A stretch of DNA of 64,000 nt from an uncultured bacterium (GTDB taxonomy: Bacteria > Bacillota_I > Bacilli_A > RF39 > UBA660): positions 147,123 through 211,122 of the forward strand of contig CANSHI010000002.1 of assembly GCA_947646655.1 (NCBI GenBank), given 5' to 3'. Shown piece by piece: positions 43,780 through 59,057 of the stretch. A model generated the notes under the pieces. That model did not search any database and was not told the DNA's origin. It saw only the letters and a list, made by a program, of their open reading frames with translations. A program made the translations under genes and the position numbers. Each line of letters starts with the position of its first letter. Position 1 is the first letter of the stretch.

Positions 43780-46158
43780 ATGATGCGAATTAGTACAAGT
43801 TGGCTTAACGACTATGTCGATATTAGTGATGAAAATTTAAAAGAGCTTGCCGATAAAATTACTAATGCTGGTGTTAATGTTGAGACTGTTGAAGAATATA
43901 ATACACCTAATCTAGTCGTTGGACATGTATTGGAATGTGAAATGCATCCCGATTCAGATCATTTACATGTTTGTAAGGTCGATGTAGGGGATGAAGTATT
44001 ACAAATAGTTTGTGGTGCCCCAAATGTAGGAGCTGATAAGAAAGTTATCGTATCTAAAGTAGGGTGCCTGTTACCTGGTGACATCGAAATTAAAAAGTCA
44101 GTAATGCGTGGTGTAGAATCTAATGGTATGTTATGTGCTTTGTCAGAGTTAGGATTAGAAGAAGATACTCCTGAAAATCATGCAAAAGGTATCCATATTT
44201 TGCCTGATGAAGCGATTGTAGGTAGTAATCCATATAATTATTTAGGATTAGATGATACGATTTATAATTTAGATTTGAACCCTAATAGAGAAGCAGATTG
44301 TACGAATCATATCGGATTTGCCTATGAAGTTGCAAGTGTACTAGGTCGCAGGGTTGAGATGCCTGAAACATGGAGCAATCCTGTAAAAGAAAGTGTGACT
44401 GATGAATTAGAAGTCGATGTTATTACAGACAATTGTACAATGTATAATGCTAGAAAAGTTAAAAATGTAGTTATTAAAGAAAGTCCTGAATTTATTAGAA
44501 ATAGACTAACGAATTGTGGGATGAGATCGATCAACAATGTAGTCGATATAAGCAATTATATTATGTTGGAATATGGTCAACCTCTTCACTTTTTCGATGC
44601 TAAAAAATTAGGTAATAGTATACTAGTTAGAATGGCCGAAGATGGTGAAGAGATAGTTACGTTGGATAATGAAACAAGAAAGTTAACTGGCGAAGATATT
44701 GTTATTACTGACGGAGAAAAACCAGTTGCTATCGCTGGTATAATGGGAGGAATAAATAGTTGTATCGATGAAAACACTACCGATGTAGTTATCGAGTCTG
44801 CTATATTTGATCCTTTAAAAATTAGATATACTTCTAAGAGATTAGATTTAAAAAGTGAAGCTAGTAGAAGATATGAACATGGATTAAATCATGAGTATAC
44901 GATGAATGCAATTGACAGGGCATGTTATTTACTAGAAAAATATGCTGATGCAGAAGTATTGTCTGATACGATTACACACGATATAATAGATAAAACTCCT
45001 AAAGTAGCCAAAGTATCATTAGAAAAAATTAATACACTTTTAGGATTAGAATTAACTTTGGAGGATGCAAAAAGATCTTTAGAAAATTTACAGTTTCCAT
45101 ATGAATTAAAAGAATCTGAATTTATCGTTACAATTCCGATTAGAAGAGGCGATGTTTCTATGAGAGAAGATCTTGTAGAAGAGATTGGAAGACTTTATGG
45201 TTATGATAAAATTGTTGGTAAACTTCCTAAGTTAGATGTAAGACGTGGAGTATATGTCGGTAATGTCGGTTTAAGAAAAAGCATTTCTAAAAGACTAAGA
45301 TCTTTAGGTCTTAATGAAACTAGAACTTATACTTTGATCAGTCCTAGTATGGACAGTCTATTTCAATATAATCGTGGCAATTCTATTACTCTTTTAAAAC
45401 CTATGAGTGTCGATAAATCTATTGTTAGACAAACACTTTTACTGTCATTATTAAATGTTTATGATTATAATATTGCCCATGGAGTAAAAAATATTAATAT
45501 ATATGAAATCGCAAATACTTATAGTGATGTCGATATAGAAGATGAAAAGTTGACAGTTTTAATGAGTGGCGAATATATGAGTAATATGTGGCAAGGGATT
45601 AAAGTTAAAGCTGATTTTTACTTATTAAAAGGTATTATAGAAAATACTCTTGAGTATTTAGGTTATAAAGGTAGAATTAGTTTTGCCGAATCGTGTGATA
45701 TACCAAATATGCATCCAGGTGCTACGGCAATTATAAATATTGATAATAGGGAAGTAGGATTTATAGGTAAAATTCATCCTTTACTTTGTAAGCAAGAAGT
45801 TTACTGCTTAGAGATTTCTCTTAAAAAATTAGCGGAGAAAAAAACACGTGGATTTAAGTTTAAGGAAATGAATAAATTCCCTAGCATTGTTAAAGATGTT
45901 GCCTTTGTAATGCCAGATGATATGTCTTCTTCAGTTGTGGAAAAAGAGATTAAAAGAAGTGGCGGTAAACTATTATTAGATATTCAAGTGTTCGATTTAT
46001 ATAAGGGAGATAATATTGGAAATAATGAAAAATCTATTGCCTATTCTTTAACTTTTGAAAGTGAAGAGAGAACTCTTACAAGTGATGAAGTAAATGATCT
46101 TTTCAACAGAGTTATCGATGAAGTTTGCACGAAGTTAAATCTTAGAATTAGAAATTAG
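43780..46158 (+). CDS. pheT: Phenylalanine--tRNA ligase beta subunit
   Basis: 792 aa; tRNA-binding OB N-terminus, B3/B4, B5 and FDX-ACB order; ATGATG start right after pheS. Confidence 0.9.
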   Translation: MMRISTSWLNDYVDISDENLKELADKITNAGVNVETVEEYNTPNLVVGHVLECEMHPDSDHLHVCKVDVGDEVLQIVCGAPNVGADKKVIVSKVGCLLPGDIEIKKSVMRGVESNGMLCALSELGLEEDTPENHAKGIHILPDEAIVGSNPYNYLGLDDTIYNLDLNPNREADCTNHIGFAYEVASVLGRRVEMPETWSNPVKESVTDELEVDVITDNCTMYNARKVKNVVIKESPEFIRNRLTNCGMRSINNVVDISNYIMLEYGQPLHFFDAKKLGNSILVRMAEDGEEIVTLDNETRKLTGEDIVITDGEKPVAIAGIMGGINSCIDENTTDVVIESAIFDPLKIRYTSKRLDLKSEASRRYEHGLNHEYTMNAIDRACYLLEKYADAEVLSDTITHDIIDKTPKVAKVSLEKINTLLGLELTLEDAKRSLENLQFPYELKESEFIVTIPIRRGDVSMREDLVEEIGRLYGYDKIVGKLPKLDVRRGVYVGNVGLRKSISKRLRSLGLNETRTYTLISPSMDSLFQYNRGNSITLLKPMSVDKSIVRQTLLLSLLNVYDYNIAHGVKNINIYEIANTYSDVDIEDEKLTVLMSGEYMSNMWQGIKVKADFYLLKGIIENTLEYLGYKGRISFAESCDIPNMHPGATAIINIDNREVGFIGKIHPLLCKQEVYCLEISLKKLAEKKTRGFKFKEMNKFPSIVKDVAFVMPDDMSSSVVEKEIKRSGGKLLLDIQVFDLYKGDNIGNNEKSIAYSLTFESEERTLTSDEVNDLFNRVIDEVCTKLNLRIRN

Positions 46159-46159: not shown

Positions 46160-46195
46160 GGTTAGTTTTAAACTAGCTCCTTTTTTATAAATCGT
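46160..46195 (+). terminator. Probable terminator after pheT
   Basis: An imperfect GTTAGTTT-taaa-AAACTAGC hairpin followed by TCCTTTTTTA. Confidence 0.4.
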
Positions 46196-46285
46196 ATAGT
46201 GCAACTAAAAAGTTACACAAATACAACTTAAATTTGGTAGAATGCAACCCGCGTTCCATGTTATATTTTTTACGAGGTGAAAGAA

Positions 46286-47818
46286 ATGAGTTTTAATGAA
46301 AAGTTACAAACTTTAAGAAAAGAAAAGAAATTATCACAAGAGCAACTAGCGGATATGCTCGATGTAACGAGACAGTCAGTTTCGAAGTGGGAATCAGGTA
46401 CAACTTATCCTGAAATGGATAAATTGATTATGTTGTGCAAAATATTTAAATGTAGTTTAGACGACTTAACTAATGATGAAGTTACGAATCTCAATATTTC
46501 TGAAAAGAGAGAAGGGACACAAAATAATTTTTTAAGAAGCATATTAGATATTATTACGAAAACGGTTTATATGTTTAAAGCGATGAGTTTTAAGCAAATT
46601 ATCGGTTGCATTATTTCGATGTTTATACTAGCTTTAATATTGTTAATATTTAGGATTCCTTTTAGTTTAATTGAAGAAGGTTTTAGAGATGTAATTTATT
46701 CTTTACTTACAAATATTAGGGCACAAAAGATAGTGATGGGGTTATTTTGTTTTATACTTGATATAATTTACTATGCACTTTATATACTCGTTTATGTATA
46801 TATTTATAAGTTAGCTTTTTTAGACAAATATGAGTTTGTCGATAAGGTTGAGAAGAAAACACTAATAACTAATGAGACCGATACTGTAAGTGAGAAACAT
46901 GAATCTGTTAAAGAAGTCATTATAACGAATAAAGAGTCACATGAAAATTCTTTATTTAAGCTTTTAGGAACTTTAGCACTTGGTTTTATAAAATTTTTAA
47001 CTATAGTGTTTAGTTTTCCAATAATATTTATTTTAATAATATTATTTTTCTTCATTGTATTTGCATTATATTTTATGTTAGAAGGAATATTCTTTTTTGG
47101 TATATTGTTGGGATTAATTTTTGCAGCTATATTAGTTATATGGTTCTTAGTTTTAGTTAGTAGTTTTATATTTAACAAAAAGGTATCTTTTAAAAAAATG
47201 CTTTTAGTTTTTCTTATCAGTCTTATAGGATTAGGAATATCAAGTGGTATTACCGTTTTAGAGATTTCTAAGTTAAATTATAAATCTGATGTACTGGTTG
47301 ATGCAGAAGAGAAAAATGTGACTTTTGAAAAAAGCATGAGTGAAAGTTTATATATCGATATGTACAACCATTATGGAAATTTATTATATGAAGAAAATGA
47401 AACACTGGACAATGTTTTAATCGAAGTTCATTATTATGGTAAGATGTATAAAATAGATTTGCTAGAAAGTAAAGATGTAATAGATTTTGATATATATTAT
47501 AGTGATGAGTTTGATAGAACGAAGTTTATGTTTAAAACAATTAAAGATGGATTAAAAAAACGAGAAATATATAATTTAGATAAAATTTTACGTTATGATA
47601 TTAAAATAAAAGCTAATAGTAAAAACATAAATAAAATAAAACAAAACACTATAAGTTATTGGGAAAGTGTTAGAGAAAAAGAAAGAGAAGATAGTTGCAA
47701 TTCTTATAATATATCTATTTTGGATTACGAAAATAGATATAATGAATTGTTAGAAGAAAACGAATATTTAAAAGAGAGAATAGACATATTAGAAGAAGAA
47801 ATACGAGAAAATGAGTGA
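46286..47818 (+). CDS. Membrane-tethered XRE-family transcriptional regulator
   Basis: The N-terminal HTH_XRE (LRKEKKLSQEQLADMLDVTRQSVSKWESG) is followed by multiple TM helices and a C-terminal coiled-coil (EENEYLKERIDILEEEIREN); the track start is GTG and ATG 46286 follows GAGGTGA. Confidence 0.65.
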   Translation: MSFNEKLQTLRKEKKLSQEQLADMLDVTRQSVSKWESGTTYPEMDKLIMLCKIFKCSLDDLTNDEVTNLNISEKREGTQNNFLRSILDIITKTVYMFKAMSFKQIIGCIISMFILALILLIFRIPFSLIEEGFRDVIYSLLTNIRAQKIVMGLFCFILDIIYYALYILVYVYIYKLAFLDKYEFVDKVEKKTLITNETDTVSEKHESVKEVIITNKESHENSLFKLLGTLALGFIKFLTIVFSFPIIFILIILFFFIVFALYFMLEGIFFFGILLGLIFAAILVIWFLVLVSSFIFNKKVSFKKMLLVFLISLIGLGISSGITVLEISKLNYKSDVLVDAEEKNVTFEKSMSESLYIDMYNHYGNLLYEENETLDNVLIEVHYYGKMYKIDLLESKDVIDFDIYYSDEFDRTKFMFKTIKDGLKKREIYNLDKILRYDIKIKANSKNINKIKQNTISYWESVREKEREDSCNSYNISILDYENRYNELLEENEYLKERIDILEEEIRENE

Positions 47819-47836
47819 CTCGTATTTTTTAATGTT

Positions 47837-48265
47837 TTATAATAAAAGTTGTATTTTTATATATAAATTATTTTCTTCATTTTTTAAATTGTTTATATGA
47901 GTTTGGAGTATTTGGTTAATCGATGTATTTTCATATTTCGCTTGTAAATCATTCATATATGTTAGGGCATCCTTTTTAAAGTTAAAAACTTTAATTTCAT
48001 AATAGTCAGATACGACATGGTTTTTTGAGTAAAAGACACCAACTCGATAGTCTAGAAGATTGATTGTTTCTAAACAGATTAAAACTTTTATATTAGAAAA
48101 ATGGTATTCATTGATAATAAGCTTTTTAGCATTTTCAGCGGATATATTTTTAATTTTTGTTTTTGGATCGTAATGTTTTAATAAAGTATAATATTGTTTA
48201 CGAAGGTTTTTAACTGATAATTCTTTTTGTATCAGGTAATCGAATGTGTCATCAATAATATGCAT
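47837..48265 (-). CDS. Hypothetical 142-aa protein (repeat copy A)
   Basis: Identical to 51602..52030 except for the last residue; no recognisable motif. Confidence 0.55.
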   Translation of the reverse strand: MHIIDDTFDYLIQKELSVKNLRKQYYTLLKHYDPKTKIKNISAENAKKLIINEYHFSNIKVLICLETINLLDYRVGVFYSKNHVVSDYYEIKVFNFKKDALTYMNDLQAKYENTSINQILQTHINNLKNEENNLYIKIQLLL

Positions 48266-48368
48266 AGGCTGGCCTTTCTTGACTTTATTATATCACATTC
48301 TGCTCGTATTTAGGTCATTTTATCGAATAAAATAAAATTTTTTGCGAAAATTGTATATAAGGTGGTAT

Positions 48369-48830
48369 ATGATGAATAGCACAAGATTTACTGATTTACG
48401 TGAAGAATTGGAGCTAAGTAGGAAAGAGTTAGCTCAAAAGCTAGATGTTTCACCTTCTGTATATGGAAGATGGGAGAGAGCTAAGGCTACTATTCCAACA
48501 GAAAGAATGTATCAATTATCTAATTTTTATCGTGTTAATTTAGACTATTTACTTTCTTTTATAGATGATAAAGTTGAAATATTAAGTGATGACGAAATCG
48601 ATATGGACTTAGTTTCTAAAAGAATAAAAGAGATTAGAACTGACACAGGTGAAACTTTAAGAGCTTTTGTCAAAAGATTAAATACTACAAATTCTACTTG
48701 GAGTGCATATGAAACAGGTAAAGTTCTAATATTAGCAGACTTTTTGTTGGAGATATGTAAAAAGTATAATTATTCTGCTGATTGGATTTTAGGTAGATCT
48801 GATGTAAAGTTTAGAAATATTGAAGACTAA
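48369..48830 (+). CDS. Tandem-HTH XRE-family transcriptional regulator (repeat copy A)
   Basis: Two consecutive HTH_XRE domains (LSRKELAQKLDVSPSVYGRWER; TGETLRAFVKRLNTTNSTWSAYETG); ATG after AAGGTGG; divergent from the 142-aa gene. Confidence 0.7.
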   Translation: MMNSTRFTDLREELELSRKELAQKLDVSPSVYGRWERAKATIPTERMYQLSNFYRVNLDYLLSFIDDKVEILSDDEIDMDLVSKRIKEIRTDTGETLRAFVKRLNTTNSTWSAYETGKVLILADFLLEICKKYNYSADWILGRSDVKFRNIED

Positions 48831-48980
48831 AAAATCTATTTTTGAAAATTTTGTTACTAATTAAATACTATATTCAGATTAAATATAGTGTTTTTTATTA
48901 TATTAAATAATTATAACTTTTATTTTAAGTTTTCTGTTTTTGTGATAAAATATAACTAGAAGAAAGGAAGAAGACATTTT

Positions 48981-49628
48981 ATGAAAATAACTAAATACCC
49001 TCAATCATGTTTATTGGTTGAAACAAATAACAAAAAAATATTAGTAGATGCAGGAGGATTAAAATACAAAGAAAAATATTTTGATATATGGAAACAAGCT
49101 GATATTATTTTATTAACTCATAAGCATGGCGATCATGTAAATTATGATGTTTTAAAAAATATTGATGTTCCTATTTATTCTACTTTAGAGGTACAAAATA
49201 CTTACCCTGAATTAAAAATTAATATTATTAAAGAAAATGATAATATTCCTTTAGATAATATAAATATTGAAGTTGTTAAAGCCGTTCATGGCTATAATCC
49301 AAATTTAAAAAATGGTGGCGAAGTATTTGAAAATGTAGGTTATATAATTAATGATAATAAAACAAGACTTTATATAACAAGCGATACAATATGTTTTAAC
49401 AATGATTATAAAGCCGATATTGTTGCTTTACCTGTTACAGCCTATGGATTAACAATGTCTAGTTATGAAGCATCTTTATTCGCAAAGGATTTAGGCGCTA
49501 AATTAGTTCTACCTATTCACATGGATAATGAAAAATATCCTACTAATTTAGAATATATGAAAAATAATTTTGAAATATTTGATATAAATTATGAAGTATT
49601 AGAAATTGAAGAAAGTTTGGAGGTTTAG
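48981..49628 (+). CDS. Small MBL-fold metallo-hydrolase
   Basis: HxHxDH motif LTHKHGDHVNYD; 215 aa; RBS GAAAGGAAG. Confidence 0.7.
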   Translation: MKITKYPQSCLLVETNNKKILVDAGGLKYKEKYFDIWKQADIILLTHKHGDHVNYDVLKNIDVPIYSTLEVQNTYPELKINIIKENDNIPLDNINIEVVKAVHGYNPNLKNGGEVFENVGYIINDNKTRLYITSDTICFNNDYKADIVALPVTAYGLTMSSYEASLFAKDLGAKLVLPIHMDNEKYPTNLEYMKNNFEIFDINYEVLEIEESLEV

Positions 49629-50011
49629 ATAGGGAAAAAAATTATTAAGTTTATGACAAGTGACAGAGAAATAATATATTCAAACTTTTGTAAGAATTTT
49701 TAAAAATATCGCTTACAAATATATCATGAATTTAAAAATTCAAATATAAGTAATTTACATAAATCCTTTTTCAACTCAGAATATTGTCGGATTATTAAAT
49801 TATAATCATACTTATTACAAAAGATTTGAAAGTGGTTAAAGAAAATCTTATAAATAATTACCTTTTTTATGTTTTTGCATAAAATTTCTTTTTTTATAAG
49901 GAGAAAAAATTTTGATGCATCAAATAGTAACATTTAATCAACTTATTCCAAAGTTGACGACCTTTGGCAATTTATAATTGAAGGTGGTTTATACGAAATT
50001 TATCATTTGTA

Positions 50012-50941
50012 TTATAAATCTTTTAATTTTTCAAAATTTTCTGGTAAATGTATTATAGATAGTAATTGATTTCTATTAAGTGAACCGATTTCTTCATCAT
50101 ATTTAGTTATTAAATCTGATAAATTATCTATTAATATATTAAACTTATTTTTACTTGAAAAAATCTTAATAGATATTAAAATCGCAAACAAATCTTTTTT
50201 ACCTTGTATTATATTATTATTTTTATCTTTCTTTAAATTAAATTCATTATGATATTTAGTTGTTTTAATACCTAATTTATCATCAATAAATGATAAAAGA
50301 ATATCATCGTGGCAGCATATATTCCTTACTCTAACAAGTAATCTTAACATATTGGCAACTTCATTACTATTAATTTTTTCACTAGTTAATTTTTTCTTCA
50401 TATAATCTTTATCATTAGTTTTAGATACATAGAACATATCACGTATCATACCAAATGATAATATTTTCATATATACCCATAATGGAATAAATGAATGATT
50501 ATTCCTATAAAACATTACAGCTTTATTTTTATTACCAAAATCATTTAATTGTTTATCTAAATTAGATAATGTATCACTTAAGTAATTATTTGATAAATTA
50601 TAATTATTGCTATTTAATATATCATTAACTTTAAATCCATATCTATAACAATAATTGTTAATGTAAATTGTTTTTAATTTTTGTTCTATTTCAAGTATAG
50701 AATCTAAAACAATTAACTTTAACATTTTATCAAATATATATAATGAGTATATATCTTCAAAAGAAGTATTATCTTTATAAGTTCCATCAATATTTTTGAA
50801 AGCAAACTTATAACCCATAATAAAATAATAATTATTAGTTTCCAAAATGTTTCTAACATTATTTTCGTTTTTAATATTAATATTTTTAGATTTAATGTTA
50901 TTTATTAATTCATCAATAGTTAAAAAAGTTTTTTCTGACAT
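50012..50941 (-). CDS. Abi_2 (AbiD/AbiF-like) abortive-infection family protein
   Basis: The N-terminus LTIDELINNIKSKNINIKNENNVRNILETNNYYFIMGYKFAF follows the Abi_2 pattern (..eq...L..rGl.i.d...a...L..i.YYrl.gY); about 310 aa; the internal ATG after AGGTGA is preferred over the track start. Confidence 0.6.
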   Translation of the reverse strand: MSEKTFLTIDELINNIKSKNINIKNENNVRNILETNNYYFIMGYKFAFKNIDGTYKDNTSFEDIYSLYIFDKMLKLIVLDSILEIEQKLKTIYINNYCYRYGFKVNDILNSNNYNLSNNYLSDTLSNLDKQLNDFGNKNKAVMFYRNNHSFIPLWVYMKILSFGMIRDMFYVSKTNDKDYMKKKLTSEKINSNEVANMLRLLVRVRNICCHDDILLSFIDDKLGIKTTKYHNEFNLKKDKNNNIIQGKKDLFAILISIKIFSSKNKFNILIDNLSDLITKYDEEIGSLNRNQLLSIIHLPENFEKLKDL

Positions 50942-51062
50942 ATAATCATCACCTGTAATTATTATATCAGAAAAAGACACAAAAGAATAATCCTTTGTGT
51001 GCTCACTTGCAGGAAATTATATTCCTACACTAATAATATATGCAAATATTGAATAAATATAC

Positions 51063-51093
51063 AAAAAAGACTGGAAGACCGTAGTTCTTTCCA
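51063..51093 (-). terminator. Candidate minus-strand terminator upstream of the Abi gene
   Basis: CTGGAAGA...TCTTTCCAG hairpin; on the minus strand it is followed by TCTTTTTTG. Confidence 0.4.
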
Positions 51094-51511
51094 GTGCTCA
51101 CAACTAAATATTACCAAAAATAGATGGTTTTGTCAAATCATTTTGTAAAAGTTTTATGATAATGTCAGTATAAATAGTTTTTTGAAAATGACAGTAAATT
51201 GATAAAATAAATAATGGTAATATCCCATATATATTATTTGGCTTTCTTTGTGATATTTGTTTATCTATTGGCCAAATAAAGGTAATAATAAATCTAACGA
51301 AATTGCTACAATACCTGAACTTTTAGGTATACGATGTTAAAGGCAAGATTATAACAATTAATGCTATCGGTACTCAAGAAGAAATTGACTCGTTATCTTT
51401 ATGATTTTCACAATATTGAGAATTTTATTTTCAACATTATTCCTTTTCTTTAGTATTTCTCTTTACGTCTTTTTTTATGTGATTGCCTTATGCGTTTGAT
51501 ATTAAAATACA

Positions 51512-51544
51512 AGTAGTAAATTAGTAGTAAATTAGTAGTAAACT
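51512..51544. repeat. 3 tandem copies of an 11-nt unit (AGTAGTAAATT)
   Basis: Seen directly, in the roughly 600-bp non-coding stretch between the Abi gene and repeat copy B. Confidence 0.8.
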
Positions 51545-51601
51545 GGTATATTCTTTTGCATAAGTCTATAAATAAAGTTTTTAATAATTAAATTACAATT
51601 T

Positions 51602-52030
51602 TTATGATAAAAGTTGTATTTTTATATATAAATTATTTTCTTCATTTTTTAAATTGTTTATATGAGTTTGGAGTATTTGGTTAATCGATGTATTTTCATA
51701 TTTCGCTTGTAAATCATTCATATATGTTAGGGCATCCTTTTTAAAGTTAAAAACTTTAATTTCATAATAGTCAGATACGACATGGTTTTTTGAGTAAAAG
51801 ACACCAACTCGATAGTCTAGAAGATTGATTGTTTCTAAACAGATTAAAACTTTTATATTAGAAAAATGGTATTCATTGATAATAAGCTTTTTAGCATTTT
51901 CAGCGGATATATTTTTAATTTTTGTTTTTGGATCGTAATGTTTTAATAAAGTATAATATTGTTTACGAAGGTTTTTAACTGATAATTCTTTTTGTATCAG
52001 GTAATCGAATGTGTCATCAATAATATGCAT
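51602..52030 (-). CDS. Hypothetical 142-aa protein (repeat copy B)
   Basis: Duplicate of 47837..48265. Confidence 0.55.
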   Translation of the reverse strand: MHIIDDTFDYLIQKELSVKNLRKQYYTLLKHYDPKTKIKNISAENAKKLIINEYHFSNIKVLICLETINLLDYRVGVFYSKNHVVSDYYEIKVFNFKKDALTYMNDLQAKYENTSINQILQTHINNLKNEENNLYIKIQLLS

Positions 52031-52133
52031 AGGCTGGCCTTTCTTGACTTTATTATATCACATTCTGCTCGTATTTAGGTCATTTTATCGAATAAAATAA
52101 AATTTTTTGCGAAAATTGTATATAAGGTGGTAT

Positions 52134-52595
52134 ATGATGAATAGCACAAGATTTACTGATTTACGTGAAGAATTGGAGCTAAGTAGGAAAGAGTTAGCTC
52201 AAAAGCTAGATGTTTCACCTTCTGTATATGGAAGATGGGAGAGAGCTAAGGCTACTATTCCAACAGAAAGAATGTATCAATTATCTAATTTTTATCGTGT
52301 TAATTTAGACTATTTACTTTCTTTTATAGATGATAAAGTTGAAATATTAAGTGATGACGAAATCGATATGGACTTAGTTTCTAAAAGAATAAAAGAGATT
52401 AGAACTGACACAGGTGAAACTTTAAGAGCTTTTGTCAAAAGATTAAATACTACGAATTCTACTTGGAGTGCATATGAAACTGGTAAAGTATTAATATTAG
52501 CAGACTTTTTGTTGGAAATATGTAAAAAGTATAATTATTCTGCTGATTGGATTTTAGGAAGATCTGATGTAAAGTTTAGAAATAATGAAGACTAA
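52134..52595 (+). CDS. Tandem-HTH XRE-family transcriptional regulator (repeat copy B)
   Basis: Duplicate of 48369..48830 with 2 aa substitutions. Confidence 0.7.
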   Translation: MMNSTRFTDLREELELSRKELAQKLDVSPSVYGRWERAKATIPTERMYQLSNFYRVNLDYLLSFIDDKVEILSDDEIDMDLVSKRIKEIRTDTGETLRAFVKRLNTTNSTWSAYETGKVLILADFLLEICKKYNYSADWILGRSDVKFRNNED

Positions 52596-52757
52596 AAATT
52601 CTTTTTAAAGTAAAGAAGAAAAATACGTGAAATAAATGAGATATTTAATCTTTAGATTAGTTATAAGAAAATATTTAAATAGTATTTTTTTTTTAAATTA
52701 TTTATTGTATAATATCCATAATGCATAGGTATTTTAGATTTTATACGGGAGGAACGC

Positions 52758-55058
52758 ATGTTAAAACTAACAAATATAAAAAAAGAATATCAGGGAAAAG
52801 TAGTTTTAGAAGATATAAATTTAGAGTTACCAAATAAAGGGTTAGTTTTATTAAAGGGTCAAAACGGCTCAGGTAAAACTACTTTATTAAATATAATTGG
52901 TGGACTTGAGACTCCCACAAGAGGTTATATAGAGATAGATAATAAAAAACTATCAGTAAGAGAAAAAGAACTTTGTAAGTATCGAGAGGAATATATAAGC
53001 TATATATTTCAAGAAAATAATTTATTTGATAATTTGAGTGTAGAAGAGAATATAAATATAACAGGTAAATCTGAAAAATTTGACGAGATAGTAGAAATAT
53101 TAAAACTAAGAAAACTATTAAATCAAAAGGCAAAAAGTTTATCAGGAGGGGAAAAACAGAGAGTAGCAATAGCAAGAGCAATTACAAAAAAGTCAAAAAT
53201 AATATTAGCGGATGAGCCGACTGCATCAATAGATGCGGAGTCTAAAGATATAATATTAAAATTACTTAAAGAGCTGAGTGAAAGTAGATTAGTAATTTTA
53301 ATATCTCATGATAAAATAGAAATACCTTATTTTGTAGATGAGACTATGTGTTTAAGTCAAGGTAAAGTAACTTTTATGAACAAAAAGAAAGAAAAAAAAG
53401 AAGAATTAGAAGATATTTCAAAATATTATAATAATTTTAACTGTTATCAGTTTACTTTTAAACATCTTTTTGTTAACAAAAAAATGCTAATAAGAAATAG
53501 CATAATTTTAATCTTTCTTATTTTCATACTTTTTATATCATTAATTATCTCTTTTGAGAATATAATGGATGTTCATATTAACACTTTGTTAGCAGAAAAC
53601 GATACTTCATTGATGATTAGTAAACAAAAAGAGTTGGAAGATTTTTCGTGGATAAATGATCGTGATGGCTTTTTAGAAGAGGATCTTGAATATTTTGATG
53701 ATTTAAAATTTAAAAATTCTTTTATTGATCTTAAAACTATACAAGCTCATTACGAACCGGTAAAGTTTGAGATACCTTTTTTACCAGGAAATAGTTATTT
53801 GATCAATCTTAATCAGTTATATTATGCTTCCGATAATTATATTAATCCGAAATATGGAAAAAAGCCTACCTATAAAAATGAAATTGTAATTTCTACATAT
53901 TTAGCAGATAGTATAGTAGAATTTGGAATAATTGATAGTCAAGAAGAAACATTTTATCCTAAAAATTATGAAGATTTATTAAAAACAGATAAATATTTAA
54001 AATTAGGGCCTGCAGACGTTAAAATTGTAGGAATATACGAACTAGATTTGAATAATTATAATAACATAAAAACTGGTAATTTTAATGCAGAACAATATGA
54101 AATATTTAAAAGATATGTTAATAAGTATGCTAGTATTGTGTATGTAAAAGACAGTTTTTATGATCTGTATAAGGATTTAGAATCTTTGCTATATCAAGAT
54201 ACAAAATTTTACATATTAGAAGAAGAATTTACTTATAATATAAATGTTTTTAATAAACCTATAATATTGGAGAATGGAAATACTATAAATGAATTAGCTG
54301 ATAACGAAATTATAATTGGTGAAGAGATTATAAAATTATTAAATGTTAGTAGTAATAGCGTAGACGAAAGTATAGTCTTAACTATAAAATCAAATACTGC
54401 AGGAGTAAAAAAAGATTTATCATTTAAAATAGTTGGAGTATCACAAGCTAATGAAATATATATTAACGAAAGAAATGTTAGTGATTTTTATTCTAAAAAT
54501 ATTGTAGTTAGCAATGTTTTAGTCAACGGATATAGTAAAGAAGATTTAAAAAATATTTTTAATATTTTTCCTTACTACAATAATAAATATATATTATCAA
54601 CTTGTTTTAGTGAAAAATATATTATTATAGAAAAAGAGATAAAAATTATTAAAATTGTGTTAATTATTTTTTCTATAATTTTAATAAGTATAATTATAAT
54701 TTGTGTTATAAATTATTTATTTGATAGTATTGAATTGCACAAATCTGATATATCAATACTTAAATCGTTAGGTATACATGATTCAAAAATAATGTCTTTA
54801 TTTTTTATCGAATCATTTATTGTATTGTTTATTTCTTATATAATAGCTATAGGAATATTTTTACCGATCAGATTGATGTTTAATGTTTATTTTTCTACTA
54901 AAGTAGCATTTAAATGTGAGATTATTCATAATAGTATTTTTATAATAATATTATCGGGAATAATATTATTAATGGCTGATTCGGCTATATTATTTCGTAT
55001 ATTAAATAAAATTAAAAATATATCTCCTAAGGTTATTACAGGAAGTAGTGAATTATAA
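52758..55058 (+). CDS. Fused ABC transporter: ATP-binding domain plus FtsX/MacB-like permease, paralogue 1
   Basis: Walker A GQNGSGKTT, signature LSGGEKQR, Walker B ILADEP; the C-terminal half has an N-proximal TM, a large extracytoplasmic domain and a C-terminal 3-TM bundle; RBS GGGAGGAA. Confidence 0.8.
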   Translation: MLKLTNIKKEYQGKVVLEDINLELPNKGLVLLKGQNGSGKTTLLNIIGGLETPTRGYIEIDNKKLSVREKELCKYREEYISYIFQENNLFDNLSVEENINITGKSEKFDEIVEILKLRKLLNQKAKSLSGGEKQRVAIARAITKKSKIILADEPTASIDAESKDIILKLLKELSESRLVILISHDKIEIPYFVDETMCLSQGKVTFMNKKKEKKEELEDISKYYNNFNCYQFTFKHLFVNKKMLIRNSIILIFLIFILFISLIISFENIMDVHINTLLAENDTSLMISKQKELEDFSWINDRDGFLEEDLEYFDDLKFKNSFIDLKTIQAHYEPVKFEIPFLPGNSYLINLNQLYYASDNYINPKYGKKPTYKNEIVISTYLADSIVEFGIIDSQEETFYPKNYEDLLKTDKYLKLGPADVKIVGIYELDLNNYNNIKTGNFNAEQYEIFKRYVNKYASIVYVKDSFYDLYKDLESLLYQDTKFYILEEEFTYNINVFNKPIILENGNTINELADNEIIIGEEIIKLLNVSSNSVDESIVLTIKSNTAGVKKDLSFKIVGVSQANEIYINERNVSDFYSKNIVVSNVLVNGYSKEDLKNIFNIFPYYNNKYILSTCFSEKYIIIEKEIKIIKIVLIIFSIILISIIIICVINYLFDSIELHKSDISILKSLGIHDSKIMSLFFIESFIVLFISYIIAIGIFLPIRLMFNVYFSTKVAFKCEIIHNSIFIIILSGIILLMADSAILFRILNKIKNISPKVITGSSEL

Positions 55059-55217
55059 AGTTTTCTTGTCTTGTAATTATTCTTAAAAAAAAACTGTCAA
55101 AATGGTTTTTGGCAGATATTAGAAACTTTTTATAGACTTTATTCGTTATTTGAGTTATACTTGTCCTAGAAATACTAAACTATAAAATAGTGGTATAGAA
55201 TTAGGATAGTGAATAGC

Positions 55218-57500
55218 ATGTTAAAGCTAACAAATATAAAAAAAGAATATCAGGGAAAAGTAGTTTTAGAAGATATAAATTTAGAGTTACCAAATAAAGG
55301 GTTAGTTTTATTAAAGGGTCAAAACGGCTCAGGTAAAACTACTTTATTAAATATAATTGGTGGACTTGAGACTCCCACAAGAGGTTATATAGAGATAGAT
55401 AATAAAAAACTATCAGTAAGAGAAAAAGAACTTTGTAAGTATCGAGAGGAATATATAAGCTATATATTTCAAGAAAATAATTTATTTGATAATTTGAGTG
55501 TAGAAGAGAATATAAATATAACAGGTAAATCTGAAAAATTTGACGAGATAGTAGAAATATTAAAACTAAGAAAACTATTAAATCAAAAGGCAAAAAGTTT
55601 ATCAGGAGGGGAAAAACAGAGAGTAGCAATAGCAAGAGCAATTACAAAAAAGTCAAAAATAATATTAGCGGATGAGCCGACTGCATCAATAGATGCGGAG
55701 TCTAAAGATATAATATTAAAATTACTTAAAGAGCTGAGTGAAAGTAGATTAGTAATTTTAATATCTCATGATAAAATAGAAATACCTTATTTTGTAGATG
55801 AGACTATATGTTTAAGTCATGGTAAAGTAAGTTTTATGAGAAGACTAAATATTGATATTGCAACTTCTAAAATAAACAATAGAAATAATGTATACAATTT
55901 TAATATCTTAAGTTTTACGAAAAAAAATTTTATAACTGACAAAAAGAAAACTGTCAGAAACAGTATTTTACTGCTGATTACATTTTTGTTTCTGCTGTTA
56001 ATATCCTCTATCTCAAGCATCGATTTTAAAATGATGTTAGTTGACACCTTAACTTTGGAAAAAGATAATTTGTTAATGTTTAATAAATCAAACAGTACAA
56101 TTAATGATTTCAAGGAACAAGAAATAGTTTTTTTTAAAAATAATATTAATTCGGAAAAATTAGAATTAGGCTATAGTATAGAAGATAATTATAAATCAAT
56201 CAATTTTGAGATTAACTATAATTTTGGCAAATCATTAAATAATTTATATTTTTTGAATGCTAAGTTTATAGAACCAGATTACGGAACTAAGCCAATGAAA
56301 GATGATGAAATTGTTATATCGTCATACTTAGCTGATTTAATTATTCAGTCTAATGTTGATAACAATATAAATAGTTCTACTAATTATGAAACTTTAGTTA
56401 ATGGATTTTCGTTGAAATTAGGTAATCACTTAGTTCGTATTGTTGGAATATATAAAGTTAATTTGCCATCGTTACAAGAAATGAAAGTAAAAAATATTTA
56501 TAAGCAAGAAATATATGAAGAGATTATTAAAAATAGTGCAAGTAACATATATGTAACAGATAACTTTTTTAATATTTATGATGACTTAAATAAAGTAATT
56601 GATGTGGAGAATTATGTTTTTCCTTATAAAGAGTTTCAACCTAATCAAACTTCCTTTGGTGGATATGATCCGCATTCATTTAAAATTTTTAAAAATTCCG
56701 TAAATCTAGTAGATGGGACACTTATAAAAGGCATAGATGATCATGAAATTATTGTAAACACTGATGTATTAAATTATGAACATTTAAAGGTTAATGATTG
56801 TATTGGTAAAGAAATAATATTTAATATAGGTGATAATAATTATAATAACATTGGTAAAATTAAAGGTGTTATTAAGGGAGTATCAGCTGATAATAATATA
56901 TATATAAATCAGAGCAATATTCCTGAATATTTGACTAGTAATATAAAAATTAGAAAAGTAATGATTCATGAGGATAATCGAGAATTATTAGAAAGTTTAA
57001 TTACAAATGATCCTTTATCTTTTAATGAAAATACTTATGTAGTTTGGACTAATTATAGTAAAAAATTTGAAAATTTGAAATATACAATTGAAGTATTAAA
57101 AAATATTTCAATCGTAATCACAATAATTTTTTTAGTAATATCTGTAGCGTTCTTATTTAATTATGTTAAATCTAATATTGAATTACATAAAAAAGATATA
57201 GCCATTTTAAAATCATTAGGCATATCAAATGTTAAAATAATGCAATCTTTTCTTTATAAATCGATAAACTTAACTATAGTGGCATTAATTTATTCTTTAT
57301 TTTCATTTGTTATCATACGATTTATAATCAATGTGACAGTTAGTAATATTTTGGCCTTTAAAACAAATATTATTCCATTACGCTGGTATCTGTTATTGTT
57401 AATCCCTATTTTATCTTTATTGATAAATTGTTTAATATCTTTATTAACCTTTAATAAGATTAATAAGATATATCCTCAAACTTTATTAAAGAAGTTTTAA
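55218..57500 (+). CDS. Fused ABC transporter: ATP-binding domain plus FtsX/MacB-like permease, paralogue 2
   Basis: The first roughly 200 aa are identical to paralogue 1 and the permease half is divergent; the start is placed at MLKLTN by analogy, whereas the track starts 3 codons earlier. Confidence 0.8.
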   Translation: MLKLTNIKKEYQGKVVLEDINLELPNKGLVLLKGQNGSGKTTLLNIIGGLETPTRGYIEIDNKKLSVREKELCKYREEYISYIFQENNLFDNLSVEENINITGKSEKFDEIVEILKLRKLLNQKAKSLSGGEKQRVAIARAITKKSKIILADEPTASIDAESKDIILKLLKELSESRLVILISHDKIEIPYFVDETICLSHGKVSFMRRLNIDIATSKINNRNNVYNFNILSFTKKNFITDKKKTVRNSILLLITFLFLLLISSISSIDFKMMLVDTLTLEKDNLLMFNKSNSTINDFKEQEIVFFKNNINSEKLELGYSIEDNYKSINFEINYNFGKSLNNLYFLNAKFIEPDYGTKPMKDDEIVISSYLADLIIQSNVDNNINSSTNYETLVNGFSLKLGNHLVRIVGIYKVNLPSLQEMKVKNIYKQEIYEEIIKNSASNIYVTDNFFNIYDDLNKVIDVENYVFPYKEFQPNQTSFGGYDPHSFKIFKNSVNLVDGTLIKGIDDHEIIVNTDVLNYEHLKVNDCIGKEIIFNIGDNNYNNIGKIKGVIKGVSADNNIYINQSNIPEYLTSNIKIRKVMIHEDNRELLESLITNDPLSFNENTYVVWTNYSKKFENLKYTIEVLKNISIVITIIFLVISVAFLFNYVKSNIELHKKDIAILKSLGISNVKIMQSFLYKSINLTIVALIYSLFSFVIIRFIINVTVSNILAFKTNIIPLRWYLLLLIPILSLLINCLISLLTFNKINKIYPQTLLKKF

Positions 57501-57558
57501 TTGGTTTGTATTTTAATTTAATATATTAGAATATAAATAGAAAGAAGGTAAAGACTTT

Positions 57559-58035
57559 ATGAAAATGAAAAAAATTTTGTTAATTGCTTTTGCATTTGTT
57601 GCTAGCATATTTGTGGCACAAGATGTTCATGCTGCGTCATATACAATAAATTTTAATAATTTTAACAATTATCAAAATCTTGGAGCTGCTTCGACTTTTG
57701 GTGGAATTAGCCGGATTAAATATGTCAAAGTTAATGTAACTAGTACAACAGGTAAATATACCGTTGAATTTGGAAGACAAATAGCATCTGCTGGCAGTTA
57801 TGAGATGGTTTCACAAGCTATTTCTACCTATAATGGTGCAAGCACTATTTATTTCATTCCTCAAAGCATGAGTTGTCCATCAGGATATACAACATGTGTG
57901 ACAGTTTCAGAATCAAAGCCAGGAGTTAGTCATGATTATATTTCTGATAATACATTAAGATCAATCGTATATCTAAAGAGTAAAGCAGTTTTAGGATCAT
58001 CAAAGATGACGGGTTCAATTACAGTATATAATTAA
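57559..58035 (+). CDS. Small secreted protein (signal peptide, Cys pair)
   Basis: MKMKKILLIAFAFVASIFVAQDVHA/AS signal peptide; about 130-aa mature part with CPSGYTTC; RBS GAAAGAAGG. Confidence 0.55.
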   Translation: MKMKKILLIAFAFVASIFVAQDVHAASYTINFNNFNNYQNLGAASTFGGISRIKYVKVNVTSTTGKYTVEFGRQIASAGSYEMVSQAISTYNGASTIYFIPQSMSCPSGYTTCVTVSESKPGVSHDYISDNTLRSIVYLKSKAVLGSSKMTGSITVYN

Positions 58036-58239
58036 AAAGTTAAACTATCAATTGATAAAATTGGTAGTTTTATTAATAGCTTTCGAATTTTATTGCTATT
58101 ATTTTTGCTCGTAACCATTAACATTTTTAAAATTCTTTTTATATCCTATAATTGGCATTTTTACCTTCTAAAATTAAAACCACTTATCTAGTTTAAGTGG
58201 TTCATATATTAACTACAAAATTTTGTAGTACCAGTCTAT

Positions 58240-58314
58240 TGGAGGAACCGACCAGATTTGAACTGGTGATCAGGGTGTTGCAGACCCACGCCTTACCACT
58301 TGGCTACGGTTCCA
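58240..58314 (-). tRNA. tRNA-Cys (anticodon GCA)
   Basis: The minus strand reads GGAACCG-TA-GCCAAGTGGTAAGGC-G-TGGGT-CTGCAAC-ACCCT-GATC-ACCAGTTCAAATCTGGT-CGGTTCC-T-CCA, a cloverleaf with a TTCAAAT T-loop, anticodon loop CU-GCA-AC, and encoded CCA. Confidence 0.85.
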
Positions 58315-58547
58315 TTATTGTGAAAATAGAGTTTTCACAGATAATTGTATTTTACAATATTATATTATTAAAGTCAATGCATTTTGTTGTCTGACCATTA
58401 TATTTTATGCGATTTTAAACTGAAAATGATTATAAATTTATTTTCATTATTATTTTTGCTGAAATTCTAACAATCATAATTAATTTTAATATATAAATAT
58501 ATTTATATTTAAGTAATAAAAAAGAGTCTAATAATAAACTCAAATAT

Positions 58548-59057
58548 TTATTCAAAGTAAATAGAATTAAGAATCATTTTTATATCTTCTAAATCATAAA
58601 ATTGCTTAGTTATACGGATAAGATATACTTTTCCGTTATGATATAAATTTAACTCGTTAAAAGAATCTATATTTAAAGTTTCATTACTATAAAGGCCTTT
58701 TAAATCACCCTTTATTTCATAAAAAATTTTGTGTGATTGATTTTTTCCTGAACTCGTGAAATATTTTGACCAGTGTAACATCTTAATTTTAGAAATGCTT
58801 GATAATATATTTGGTTTTTTATCTTTATTAGTTTCGGCATATTTTACTAAATCTAATTCTTCTTTTATATCATATTTTTTGGTTAGATAATTAATATCTT
58901 TTTCAGTCGTATTTTCTATTACATAAGGAAAGTCATCGTCATAAACTGTTACCCAAAAATGAATTTTACCTTCGGCTTTATAAAAGTATCCAATTTCTCC
59001 TCTATCCGAAGTTACCGAAGTCTCTTCATAAATTTTATCTCCTAAACGAATATGCAT
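58548..59057 (-). CDS. Hypothetical protein
   Basis: 169 aa, no motif; weak RBS. Confidence 0.45.
   Translation of the reverse strand: MHIRLGDKIYEETSVTSDRGEIGYFYKAEGKIHFWVTVYDDDFPYVIENTTEKDINYLTKKYDIKEELDLVKYAETNKDKKPNILSSISKIKMLHWSKYFTSSGKNQSHKIFYEIKGDLKGLYSNETLNIDSFNELNLYHNGKVYLIRITKQFYDLEDIKMILNSIYFE

Follow-up and report, generated by a model that had tools for sequence, protein, structure and literature searches.

A probable integrase-free gene-turnover hotspot between a regulator cassette and tRNA-Cys in an uncultured Bacilli genome

Genomic islands associated with tRNA genes carry an integrase and a direct repeat of the tRNA 3′ end. BceAB-like modules can include a small secreted partner, as in B. 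subtilis yxdLM-yxeA, and lactococcin 972-type clusters combine a Sec-dependent bacteriocin and a TIGR03608 ABC ATPase with a 7-TM immunity protein. In many hotspots of horizontal gene transfer no mobile element can be recognised, and the flanking DNA bears marks of homologous recombination (PMC5635113). AbiF_Cd is an AbiD/AbiF (Abi_2, PF07751) protein with an RNA antitoxin, RCd22, and the ribosome-binding site of its gene is reported as AGGTGA (PMC12373285).

The locus described here lies in a 64-kb stretch (the window) of an uncultured low-GC gut Bacilli genome, on a single metagenome-derived contig; the comparison sequences (L-numbered) are metagenome contigs throughout. Like the integrase-free hotspots of Oliveira et al. 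2017 (PMC5635113), the locus holds strain-differing accessory content at one spot flanked by conserved genes and a tRNA, has no recognisable self-mobile element, and bears signs of homologous recombination and IS debris. It differs from them in its source, metagenome contigs alone from an uncultured Bacilli lineage, and in that one allele stacks two alternative cargos behind a duplicated flanking regulator cassette. With tRNA-associated islands it shares a tRNA 3′ end at its edge, atypical base composition and presence/absence among strains, but it lacks both an integrase and an att-type repeat, and its tRNA-proximal module is syntenic across species. The locus is a known kind of genome hotspot and not a new system. 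We read it, with a probability of about 0.7, as an integrase-free gene-turnover hotspot between regulator cassette H and the tRNA-Cys 3′ end, produced by homologous and IS-associated recombination. The window allele has the order H-X-H′-Y-tRNA, with at least three pieces (X, H′ and Y) in its strain-variable part.

Boundaries and strain alleles

The left core anchor is pheT (43780..46158, +), whose product, aligned over its whole length, has 66-77% amino acid identity to PheT of the nearest MAGs at genus level and 37% to that of distant ones; pheS (42669-43775) and a T-box leader (42510-42705; RF00230, 101 bits) lie upstream. HTHmem513 (46277..47818, +) follows, with an N-terminal XRE HTH (HTH_3, 61 bits) and then about 5-6 hydrophobic segments in a hydropathy scan. 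Seven genus-level relatives (L001, L002, L003, L006, L007, L008 and L012) also have a homologue downstream of pheT, at 30-61% amino acid identity, and in related strains the gene is about 88-98% identical at the nucleotide level. Next comes the resident copy A of repeat H (47835..48830), made of two divergent genes: u142 (47837-48265, −), encoding an orphan protein of 142 aa whose family comprises only three clusters at 86-97% identity, and HTH162 (48342-48830, +), a tandem-HTH regulator with two HTH_3/HTH_19 domains. Homologues of u142 led to 12 related-strain contigs, and in every one of them cassette H follows the HTHmem gene; the order pheT-HTHmem-u142-HTH162 is unbroken on every related strain contig that extends that far. 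HTHmem513 and the first cassette H are conserved backbone rather than accessory DNA.

The first-pass annotation had proposed an accessory block at 46200-58320. A strain-variable part does abut the tRNA-Cys 3′ end, but the left boundary at 46.2 kb was misplaced, the first 2.7 kb of that block being the backbone just described. The variable segment itself spans 48915..58239 (about 9.3 kb), as delimited by blastn of strain contigs against the window, direct sequence reading and fine mapping of the left junction, where homology to the empty-site allele of L034 ends at about 48913. Presence/absence polymorphism with defined junctions is shown for this segment among related strains. The tRNA-Cys(GCA) gene said to lie at the right end is real (58240..58313, −; ARAGORN, and Rfam tRNA at 62.4 bits), and its 3′ end faces the variable segment. 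Three alleles diverge from the first base past that 3′ end.

The emptiest allele, in L034 and L039 (about 90% nucleotide identity), reads pheS-pheT-HTHmem-u142-HTH, then about 150 nt, then tRNA-Cys, so that about 135 nt take the place of the variable segment. Even here pheT is not directly followed by tRNA-Cys, the arrangement for which a synteny check had been suggested, since the HTH-membrane gene, u142 and HTH162 stand between them. A second allele, in L040, L042 and L043 (about 98% identity), has about 1.2 kb in place of the 9.3-kb segment: the end of HTH162 (48833) is fused to a 229-nt copy of 50922-51150, followed by an ISNCY transposase remnant, beyond which L043 reaches tRNA-Cys. The scar keeps the leader and the first ~60 nt of the Abi2 gene described below. 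Retention of this remnant clearly marks the L040-type allele as derived by deletion, so module Y could be an ancestral part lost in other lineages and not a gain of this one. Five contigs (L034, L039, L043, L063 and L064) end within tRNA-Cys, so the empty allele and the right flank are joined on no single contig. The window architecture is reproduced from 38981 to 57769 by L057 (99.77% identity, an independent assembly), and the H′-ABC junction is seen independently in L055, L056 and L057.

A scan of the ORFs between 46.2 kb and the window end revealed no integrase or recombinase, as the first reading had it. That reading also raised the possibility of an integrase just outside, and the Pfam-marked gene calls of L062, which matches the right flank and extends about 5 kb beyond the window, include none. 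The tRNA-Cys 3′ end, for which no copy had been noticed near 46.2 kb, has none in the whole 64 kb, whether 24 nt were compared with as many as 3 mismatches or shared k-mers of at least 12 nt were sought.

The pieces of the window allele

Every gene listed for the block by the first-pass annotation is present. Its proposed check of base composition also bore out an atypical content: against 44 upstream ORFs (mean GC 0.309 ± 0.033, GC3 0.212 ± 0.029), Abi2 has GC/GC3 of 0.185/0.115, the MBL hydrolase gene 0.245/0.125 and ABC766 0.228/0.140. In GC3 these three genes fall short of the upstream genes by 2.5-3.3 SD, and the GC of Abi2 has z = −3.7.

Module X (48.9-51.6 kb) has very low GC and comprises an MBL hydrolase gene, an AbiD/AbiF-type gene and a decayed ISAs1 transposase fragment. 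The MBL-fold metal-dependent hydrolase (48981..49628, +; 215 aa) matches Lactamase_B_3 at 73.9 bits, scores under the model cut-off of NF001911 ('metal-dependent hydrolase') and has as its nearest PDB entry 3kl7, a putative metal-dependent hydrolase. The transposase fragment (51287..51400, +; frameshifted, about 38 aa), recovered by three-frame translation, matches positions 120-152 of 314 of NF033564 transpos_ISAs1 (E=1.2e-8); an earlier statement that the block held no transposase does not survive this find.

Abi2 (50012..50980, −) is the only match to a known defence family in the block (PADLOC). It matches Abi_2 (117.9 bits), PADLOC AbiD (E=7.6e-45), phrog_2158 (E=5.7e-55) and PDB 8vz6, 'Abi family protein' (E=3.4e-13), and its true start is likely the ATG at 50941, with the RBS AGGTGA upstream. 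The strong Abi_2/AbiD profile matches, the R-x4-H motif (RNICCH, residue 219) and the single-gene module are features of AbiD/AbiF proteins including AbiF_Cd, and Abi2 may act as a HEPN-type abortive-infection RNase. Its identity to phage-borne homologues is only about 26%, and unlike those systems it lies outside a prophage lysis module and is convergent with an MBL hydrolase gene. In the near-identical strain L057 the gene is frameshifted by a 1-nt deletion. In L033 it occurs at 100% nucleotide identity in a second context, adjoining what seems to be a different tRNA; past window position 51191 that contig shows an apparent different tRNA 3′ end, about 60 nt from Abi2.

A promoter/terminator scan places a predicted promoter and structured 5′ leader of Abi2 at 50935..51136 (−), with a −35 TTGACA at 51136-51131 and a TG-extended −10 at 51113-51108. 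Hairpins are predicted at about 51099-51067, 51029-51008, 51004-50974 and 50970-50935, the last covering the RBS and ATG; hairpins 1 and 3 each have GUGAGCAC before them and a U-run after them. The leader RNA folds at −43.7 kcal/mol (z = −3.9) and persists, at 92.6% identity, in L040-type alleles, which have lost the Abi2 ORF. The promoter, the ~160 nt structured leader with terminator-like hairpins and the RBS AGGTGA are shared with AbiF_Cd, but the leader has no match to the abiF motif of Rfam (RF03085).

H′ (51.6-52.6 kb) is a second ~1 kb copy of the resident cassette, so that repeats flank module X on both sides, with the ISAs1 fragment at the X/H′ side. This copy B (51600..52595; u142b at 51602-52030, −, and HTH162b at 52107-52595, +) lies directly upstream of the ABC genes. 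It forms a 996-nt direct repeat with copy A and differs from it at eight sites (one at 47841, seven within 48689-48820).

Module Y (52.6-58.2 kb) contains two tandem MacB-type fused ABC genes and the gene of a small secreted protein. ABC766 (52758..55058, +; ABC_tran 119 bits, FtsX 36 bits) shows in a hydropathy scan the layout of MacB-type (type VII, FtsX-fold) transporters: an N-terminal NBD, TM1 (about 248-266), an extracytoplasmic domain of about 365 aa, and TM2-4 in the FtsX domain; MacB 5lil matches residues 16-238. Its paralogue ABC763 (55209..57500, +), likewise a fused ABC_tran and FtsX protein, likely starts at the ATG at 55218. The two share 48% amino acid identity over the whole protein (BLASTP), with identical NBD-coding parts and a far more diverged remainder; the duplicated exporters recognised at first pass are reflected in a DNA repeat (52756-53370 and 55216-55830) that is 100% identical over 615 nt. 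The NBDs are most similar to bacteriocin-export, DevA, FtsE, LolD and MacB ATPases. In contrast to MacB systems, module Y has no membrane-fusion partner, neither MacB_PCD nor any other Pfam domain is recognisable in its extracytoplasmic part, its two tandem paralogues have near-identical NBDs, and its secreted partner comes from an undescribed family.

That partner is sec158 (57559..58035, +; 158 aa). Its signal peptide ends VHA|AS, and its two cysteines C106 and C113 are invariant. The protein has no match in Pfam, NCBIfam or PADLOC and one weak PHROG match (E=0.0044), and its family is small and extremely narrow, with proteins of 150-170 aa. An AF2 model (pLDDT 81.6; best PDB matches TM ≤0.45) predicts a beta-sandwich. 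By gene neighbourhood, the family appears linked to MacB-type ABC genes elsewhere too. A small secreted protein encoded alongside a transporter recalls yxdLM-yxeA. As in lactococcin 972-type clusters, a beta-rich small protein with a Sec signal sits beside the transporter and TIGR03608 is the best NCBIfam match of both NBDs, but at 169-172 bits, well under the 254.85 cut-off. Moreover, sec158 matches no lactococcin-972 model, lactococcin 972 is about half its size, and the 7-TM immunity protein is absent at module Y.

A second Bacilli species (L046-L053; 77.6% nucleotide identity over 5.3 kb) has orthologues of ABC766 (70.7% identity) and ABC763 (75.5%), then sec157 and tRNA-Cys(−), in the order of the window; its contig breaks in the repeated NBD, and the comparison covers module Y from that point to tRNA-Cys. 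Each ABC paralogue has its own orthologue in L046, and module Y proteins are 66-75% identical to their second-species counterparts. The NBD-coding parts are about 84% identical between the species and 97-100% within each genome, the two of L046 being 97.4% identical over 269 nt (7/269 nt differ). The earlier description of the block as a single 'defence/competition islet' is not supported. The MBL-Abi and ABC-ABC-secreted-protein modules differ in history: the Abi module is partly deleted in the 98% identical lineage and its Abi gene occurs at 100% identity elsewhere, and in the second species the ABC module stands in synteny with tRNA-Cys.

Origin of the layout and possible roles

Could the locus be one or more classical tRNA-targeting islands that entered by an integrase, since lost along with the distal att repeat? 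The variable DNA begins exactly at the tRNA-Cys 3′ end, where three alleles differ from the first base, the composition is atypical, and the identical Abi2 of L033 lies about 60 nt from an apparent other tRNA 3′ end. L062 diverges within tRNA-Cys past the T arm, like a hybrid att site, but the acceptor stem of that hybrid tRNA is unable to pair, and an assembly chimera fits better. Against an island stand also the absence of any integrase or recombinase between 46.2 kb and the window end and on L062, that of a partial tRNA copy in the window, and the tRNA-proximal module Y, which keeps its synteny with tRNA-Cys in another species, with orthologue-typical divergence; we consider this origin improbable. 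It is also unlikely that the whole block is ancestral to the species group, its short alleles being deletions with no horizontal acquisition. The L040-type scar, with the Abi2 start and leader fused to the HTH162 end, and the position of Y beside tRNA-Cys in another species would suit such a history. The low GC3 of MBL, Abi2 and ABC766, the IS remnants and the second context of Abi2 argue against it, as do the lack of X and Y genes downstream of pheT/HTHmem in genus-level relatives with enough flank and the extreme narrowness of the u142, ABC-permease and sec158 families.

The repeated parts, H/H′ as well as the identical NBDs, might instead be assembly artefacts of a single-copy locus. The middle of both repeats is exactly identical, the short contigs L055 and L056 begin and end at repeat edges, and 40 of the 44 differences between L057 and the window fall in the repeats, identical in both copies, with unique DNA near-identical to the window, a pattern that a collapsed graph edge traversed twice would give. 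The 100% repeat identity could partly reflect such repeat collapse in short-read assembly. Nevertheless, we regard a wholly artefactual duplication as very improbable: the H copies are told apart by eight sites and by the unique DNA to the left and right of each, the two ABC genes have full-length ORFs, strongly dissimilar permease halves and one L046 orthologue each, the L046 NBD parts were assembled separately and are still 7/269 nt apart, and L057, independently assembled, has the same order.

The ~1 kb direct repeat around X and the IS remnants in two alleles (ISAs1 in the window, ISNCY in the L040 type) point to assembly by recombination rather than by a site-specific integrase, one of two origins suggested at first pass. 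Under the hotspot reading, and at its strength, X would be an acquired low-GC module, mobile or foreign, whose Abi2 has its own predicted promoter and structured leader; H′ would be a duplicate of the resident cassette, and Y an older module tied to tRNA-Cys. The tandem layout may go back to two alternative alleles, H-X-tRNA and H-Y-tRNA, that recombined by homology or with the help of an IS, or else to Campbell-type insertion of an H-bearing circular fragment, and gene conversion may keep the identical stretches identical.

Gene order suggests that each HTH162 copy may regulate the next downstream operon, copy A the MBL hydrolase gene and copy B the ABC-ABC-sec158 genes. On the same grounds, the ABC pair and sec158 might cooperate at the cell envelope, in export or resistance. 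On an unrelated contig, a sec158 homologue (P0012, 37% identity) is encoded between a gene ending in FtsX and a gene starting with ABC_tran.

Strain alleles and the extent of the variable DNA

Comparison of strain alleles places the variable DNA at 48915-58239, and assigns the gene for an XRE-HTH membrane protein (HTHmem) and the first regulator cassette to the backbone. Starting from the three known clusters of u142 homologues, we obtained 12 contigs. Between HTH162 and tRNA-Cys three alleles were distinguished; decayed IS fragments are the only traces of self-mobile elements in them. The empty allele (contigs L034 and L039, a lineage of ~90% nucleotide identity) reads pheS, pheT, HTHmem, u142, HTH and tRNA-Cys, the last two separated by ~150 nt that contain a bidirectional terminator; homology to the window ends at ~48913 and restarts at 58240. 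In the short allele (L040, L042 and L043, from three samples of a ~98% lineage), HTH162 runs at its end (48833) directly into a 229-nt segment copied from window 50922-51150, which comprises the first ~60 nt of Abi2 together with the DNA upstream of it. On L043 this segment is followed by ~950 nt with an ISNCY-family transposase remnant (L043 ~62-1017; NF033594, E=3.3e-8), not of the same IS family as the window's ISAs1 fragment, and then by tRNA-Cys. The full allele is that of L057, an independent 28.7 kb assembly with 99.77% identity and the window's gene order over 38981-57769, and the junction from the second cassette to the ABC genes is confirmed by contigs L055 and L056.

The first-pass annotation had described a single defence and competition islet at 46200-58320, between pheT and tRNA-Cys. 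Its observations largely stand, and its boundaries do not. An HTHmem homologue lies downstream of pheT in seven genus-level relatives (30-61% amino acid identity), with tRNA-Cys 1-3 kb beyond it in two of the seven, and in the empty allele HTHmem, u142 and HTH separate pheT from tRNA-Cys; whether these two adjoin in related genomes was a check that the annotation had proposed. The place where gene content changes, 46.2 kb, is thus not the island boundary, which was found only by comparison at the strain level. In the genus-level relatives, pheT and HTHmem are separated by 0.1-5.3 kb of unrelated inserted DNA, which includes MatE, TetR and MMPL genes. Scanning metagenomes with the HTHmem protein returned two unrelated HTH matches only, and exact-protein look-ups of PheT and u142 found neither recorded. 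The GTDB species-representative collection offers only matches of 66-77% identity to PheT, in MAGs with the labels uncultured Bacilli, Erysipelotrichaceae or Tenericutes, so the source species is not represented there.

The gene content reported earlier holds up in the ORFs and profile matches. Upstream of pheS is a T-box leader (42510-42705; RF00230, 101 bits), an ordinary feature of Firmicute pheST operons. Beyond pheT lie HTHmem513, with several hydrophobic segments (46277-47818, + strand), the 142 aa orphan u142 (47837-48265, -) and, divergent from it, the tandem-HTH regulator HTH162 (48342-48830, +). A small MBL hydrolase (48981-49628, +) and the Abi_2/AbiD protein Abi2 (50012-50980, -) precede a second u142/HTH162 pair (51602-52595, -/+). 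The fused ABC_tran+FtsX proteins ABC766 and ABC763 (52758-55058 and 55209-57500, both +) are followed by sec158, a 158 aa protein of no family with a signal peptide (57559-58035, +), and by tRNA-Cys(GCA) (58240-58313, -). No informative homologue of u142 was found, and its predicted structure (pLDDT 58) is of too low a quality for fold searching. Further upstream, two neighbouring ORFs of 454 aa (38136-39500 and 39559-40923) are ~72-75% identical in DNA and are tandem paralogues; neither had a Pfam match.

The whole window is AT-rich (~29% GC), and in the comparison with the flanks that the first-pass annotation had proposed, GC and GC3 of the block are low. Mean GC3 is 0.212 +/- 0.029 in 44 upstream ORFs, as against 0.115 in Abi2, 0.125 in the MBL gene and 0.140 in ABC766. 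The overall GC of HTH162 and sec158 is not unusual. Within the variable DNA, composition is most deviant in module X, the stretch with the MBL hydrolase, Abi2 and the IS fragment (48.9-51.6 kb).

The Abi_2 gene and its structured leader

By its profile matches and an R-x4-H motif, Abi2 is a clear member of the Abi_2/AbiD family. It scores 117.9 bits against PF07751 (cut-off 25.6) and E=7.6e-45 against the PADLOC AbiD model, and carries RNICCH, a HEPN-type R-x4-6-H motif, at residues 219-224. The Abi_2 family was reportedly assigned to HEPN in one study. The likely start codon is the ATG at 50941, which has an AGGTGA ribosome binding site in front of it.

Module X is damaged in other strains, by a deletion in the 98% lineage and by a frameshift of Abi2 in L057, and given the latter, Abi2 may be decaying in part of the population. 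The L057 lesion is a 1-nt deletion at window 50195 (L057 11214), which leaves ORFs of 59 aa and 267 aa. Upstream of Abi2 lies an ISAs1-family transposase fragment of ~38 aa, frameshifted, at ~51287-51400; Pfam gave no match to the transposase-like peptides, which NCBIfam did detect. The claim that the block holds no integrase or transposase is right for integrases, none being found between 46.2 kb and the window end, and not quite right for transposases.

Abi2 also occurs in a second context, at 100% nucleotide identity on contig L033, and its leader is there with it. Positions 1-77 of this contig, which joins the window at 51191, consist of a terminator hairpin and then the contig end, TGGCGGAGTAGGAGAGATTTG, in appearance the 3′ end of a different tRNA gene read from the opposite strand. 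A scan of IMG/VR with Abi2 gave no relative, and tblastn against phages and plasmids gave homologues at ~25-28% identity only, so these searches did not identify the donor element of Abi2.

The region upstream of Abi2 (50935-51136, - strand) contains a TTGACA/TG-TAATAT promoter and a ~160 nt leader with four predicted hairpins (fold z = -3.9), the last of which covers the ribosome binding site and ATG. Two of the four are GUGAGCAC-hairpin-U-run units, which resemble terminators. In abiF_Cd, a promoter, a structured leader of ~100-170 nt with a terminator, a ribosome binding site and the abi gene follow in that order, and the RNA antitoxin is RCd22 (PMC12373285). The layout at Abi2 is similar, which is a resemblance only and not membership. 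The Rfam abiF motif RF03085, however, was not detected in the Abi2 leader: there was no match at E<=10 in 50850-51650 or in 50935-51125. It is absent also upstream of two phage Abi_2 homologues, and is thus of no use as a family-wide test.

The lineage that has lost Abi2 keeps the leader (L043 1017-1241) at 92.6% identity, with promoter and hairpins intact and the ribosome binding site mutated. Retention of the leader in the absence of the ORF is compatible with an antitoxin-like RNA and is no proof of one. Were the ~160-nt leader to act like RCd22 of AbiF_Cd, despite the missing Rfam motif, this would explain why leader and promoter are kept where the toxin ORF is deleted.

A MacB-type transporter pair and a small secreted protein

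Module Y, which consists of ABC766, ABC763 and sec158 (52.6-58.2 kb), recurs with conserved order and orientation in another species of Bacilli (contigs L046-L053; GCA_022792775.1), where it immediately precedes tRNA-Cys on the minus strand. Across 5.3 kb the two versions share 77.6% nucleotide identity, and their three proteins are 71%, 75.5% and 66% identical. From domain and hydropathy analysis, both ABC proteins consist of an ATPase domain (NBD), a first transmembrane segment at ~250, an extracytoplasmic domain of ~365 aa with no recognisable family, and three transmembrane segments after ~632. This matches the MacB (type VII) arrangement, in which NBD, TM1 and extracytoplasmic domain are followed by TM2-4 with the FtsX domain, and an alignment to MacB (5lil) covers the NBD into TM1. 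Such transporters have an adaptor of MacA/HlyD type, whereas no HlyD-type family occurs among the neighbours of ABC766 and ABC763.

Overall identity between the two ABC paralogues is 48%, with the first 196 alignment residues identical and the rest far more diverged. The DNA at 52756-53370 and 55216-55830, exactly the two ATPase-coding parts, is 100% identical over 615 nt. In L046 the corresponding segments (1-269 and 2464-2732) are 97.4% identical over the 269 nt available, as compared to ~84% between species, and each paralogue has its own orthologue there. This indicates that the duplication is older than the species split and that the NBD has been homogenised since in both lineages. On sequence comparison, then, it looks as if gene conversion has acted in two lineages on the ATPase domain alone.

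The sec158 family comprises small secreted proteins of 150-170 aa with two invariant cysteines. The AF2 model of sec158 (pLDDT 81.6) is a beta-sandwich with weak PDB neighbours only. Weaker matches in multiple stretches were seen to three larger proteins, one of which, 3972 aa long, has 13 matched stretches. On an unrelated contig, a homologue with 37% identity lies between a gene ending in FtsX and one starting with ABC, which supports a functional link between the sec158 family and MacB-type transporters.

Two other identities were considered for sec158. For both NBDs the best NCBIfam match is TIGR03608, the lactococcin-972-group export ATPase, at 168.8 and 172.0 bits, far below the cut-off of 254.85. 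A lactococcin 972 cluster has a TIGR03608 ATPase above cut-off and a precursor of the lactococcin-972 family, and this locus has neither: sec158 had no Pfam or NCBIfam match, and lactococcin 972 is not in its top 50 Foldseek matches in the PDB, so a lactococcin-972-like bacteriocin was rejected. A Big_14 lipoprotein occupies the corresponding place in L008, another comparison contig; it has no similarity to sec158 and was also ruled out.

Taken jointly, the envelope cassette and an Abi module of RNA-antitoxin type might be undescribed functional units and not loose cargo, a tentative reading to which we would give roughly three chances in ten. The cassette would consist of tandem fused ABC transporters of MacB type, with ATPase domains kept identical by gene conversion while the extracytoplasmic and permease halves diverge. 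Its other component would be a family of small beta-sandwich proteins that are secreted and disulfide-bonded.

Probable assembly of the locus beside tRNA-Cys

Rather than a single unit, the variable DNA is a composite that lies at a hotspot of turnover, and modules X and Y have different histories. An integrative genomic island targeting the tRNA is an alternative. The last base of the variable DNA, 58239, adjoins the 3′ end of tRNA-Cys at 58240, and empty, short and full alleles occur among close relatives; both adjacency to a tRNA 3′ end and presence or absence among close relatives are typical of such islands. Those islands also have an integrase and attL/attR-type repeats of the tRNA, and both are missing here. 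No integrase or recombinase family was found in the ORFs scanned from 46.2 to 64 kb, nor any integrase in the gene calls of L062, which comes from another sample and reaches ~5 kb beyond the window end. The first-pass annotation had found the tRNA 3′ end uncopied near 46.2 kb, and no copy exists there or elsewhere: across the whole window there is no second 24-nt match with <=3 mismatches, no shared k-mer of >=12 nt, and nothing by sliding 30-mer.

Hotspots of horizontal gene transfer without recognisable mobile elements, where turnover proceeds by homologous recombination at the flanks, have been described (PMC5635113). Our locus resembles these in carrying different accessory content between conserved genes with no recognisable self-mobile element, and the variable pheT-HTHmem inserts of the genus-level relatives (0.1-5.3 kb) are a further likeness. 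The first-pass annotation did not recognise the combination of modules as a described system; the kind is known. An islet assembled by recombination and lacking an integrase was correct in spirit; the single defence and competition islet gives way to the composite hotspot.

Assembly of the composite can be proposed from the repeat that flanks module X. The resident u142/HTH162 cassette H (47835-48830) and its copy H′ (51600-52595) differ at eight of 996 nt, seven of which fall in the last 145 nt, and the eight differences form a mosaic pattern relative to other lineages. Against the 98% lineage the copies show 27 and 29 differences in 996 nt, most of them in common. This equal distance indicates either duplication within this lineage or homogenisation of the copies since. 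Two alternative alleles, H-X-tRNA and H-Y-tRNA, could have been joined by unequal recombination to give H-X-H′-Y; alternatively, a circular fragment with H could have recombined into the resident H. The X/H′ junction adjoins the ISAs1 remnant, which makes recombination at an IS copy plausible as well. Near this junction, just left of the second repeat copy, is a short tandem repeat of ~3 copies of GTAGTAAATTA (51520-51552).

The repeats of L057 should be read with caution. Over 38981-57769 this contig has 44 differences from the window, 40 of which fall within the H or NBD repeats, each of them shared by the two copies. The ~16 kb of unique DNA holds the other four, three of them clustered at 40608-40627 in the second 454 aa ORF. 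Conversion alone does not predict such an excess in the repeats, and short-read repeat collapse or a mixed-strain consensus may contribute. The repeat differences could stem from concerted evolution involving imported alleles, or be an artefact of repeat collapse in short-read assembly.

The locus illustrates, for an uncultured gut lineage of low-GC Bacilli, how accessory genes accumulate beside a tRNA without an integrase. Alternative hotspot cargos would here have been stacked in tandem via a duplicated flanking regulator cassette. Three side findings can be tested cheaply: the apparent domain-restricted gene conversion, the orphan secreted family tied to MacB-type transporters, and the Abi_2 leader that outlives its gene. 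Neither the locus nor these findings alter a general principle, and their interest is modest.

Finally, the right flank is rearranged too. Beyond tRNA-Cys, the L046-L053 species encodes a 169 aa protein, an S41 peptidase and Spo0A. The pair of 169/176 aa gene and S41 peptidase adjoins tRNA-Cys in L046, lies near it in L008, and is ~10 kb away in the window's species. Window 58314-64000 contains two small orphans, a 446 aa lipoprotein-like protein, ogt, tag, another orphan and lysK, an order not syntenic with relatives. L062 is 99.98% identical to this flank and extends ~5 kb beyond the window, via lysK, gpr, spoIID and the S41 peptidase. Several contigs stop inside tRNA-Cys (L034, L039, L043, L063 and L064, besides L062). 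L062 diverges inside the gene after the T arm (L062 10808-11030, joining at window 58251), and its 3′ acceptor strand, TGTCGCC, is unable to pair with the 5′ GGAACCG. Beyond the T arm it carries 223 nt of unmatched, more GC-rich DNA, for which neither IMG/VR nor any fetched locus gave a match. This divergence is either an assembly chimera or another allele.
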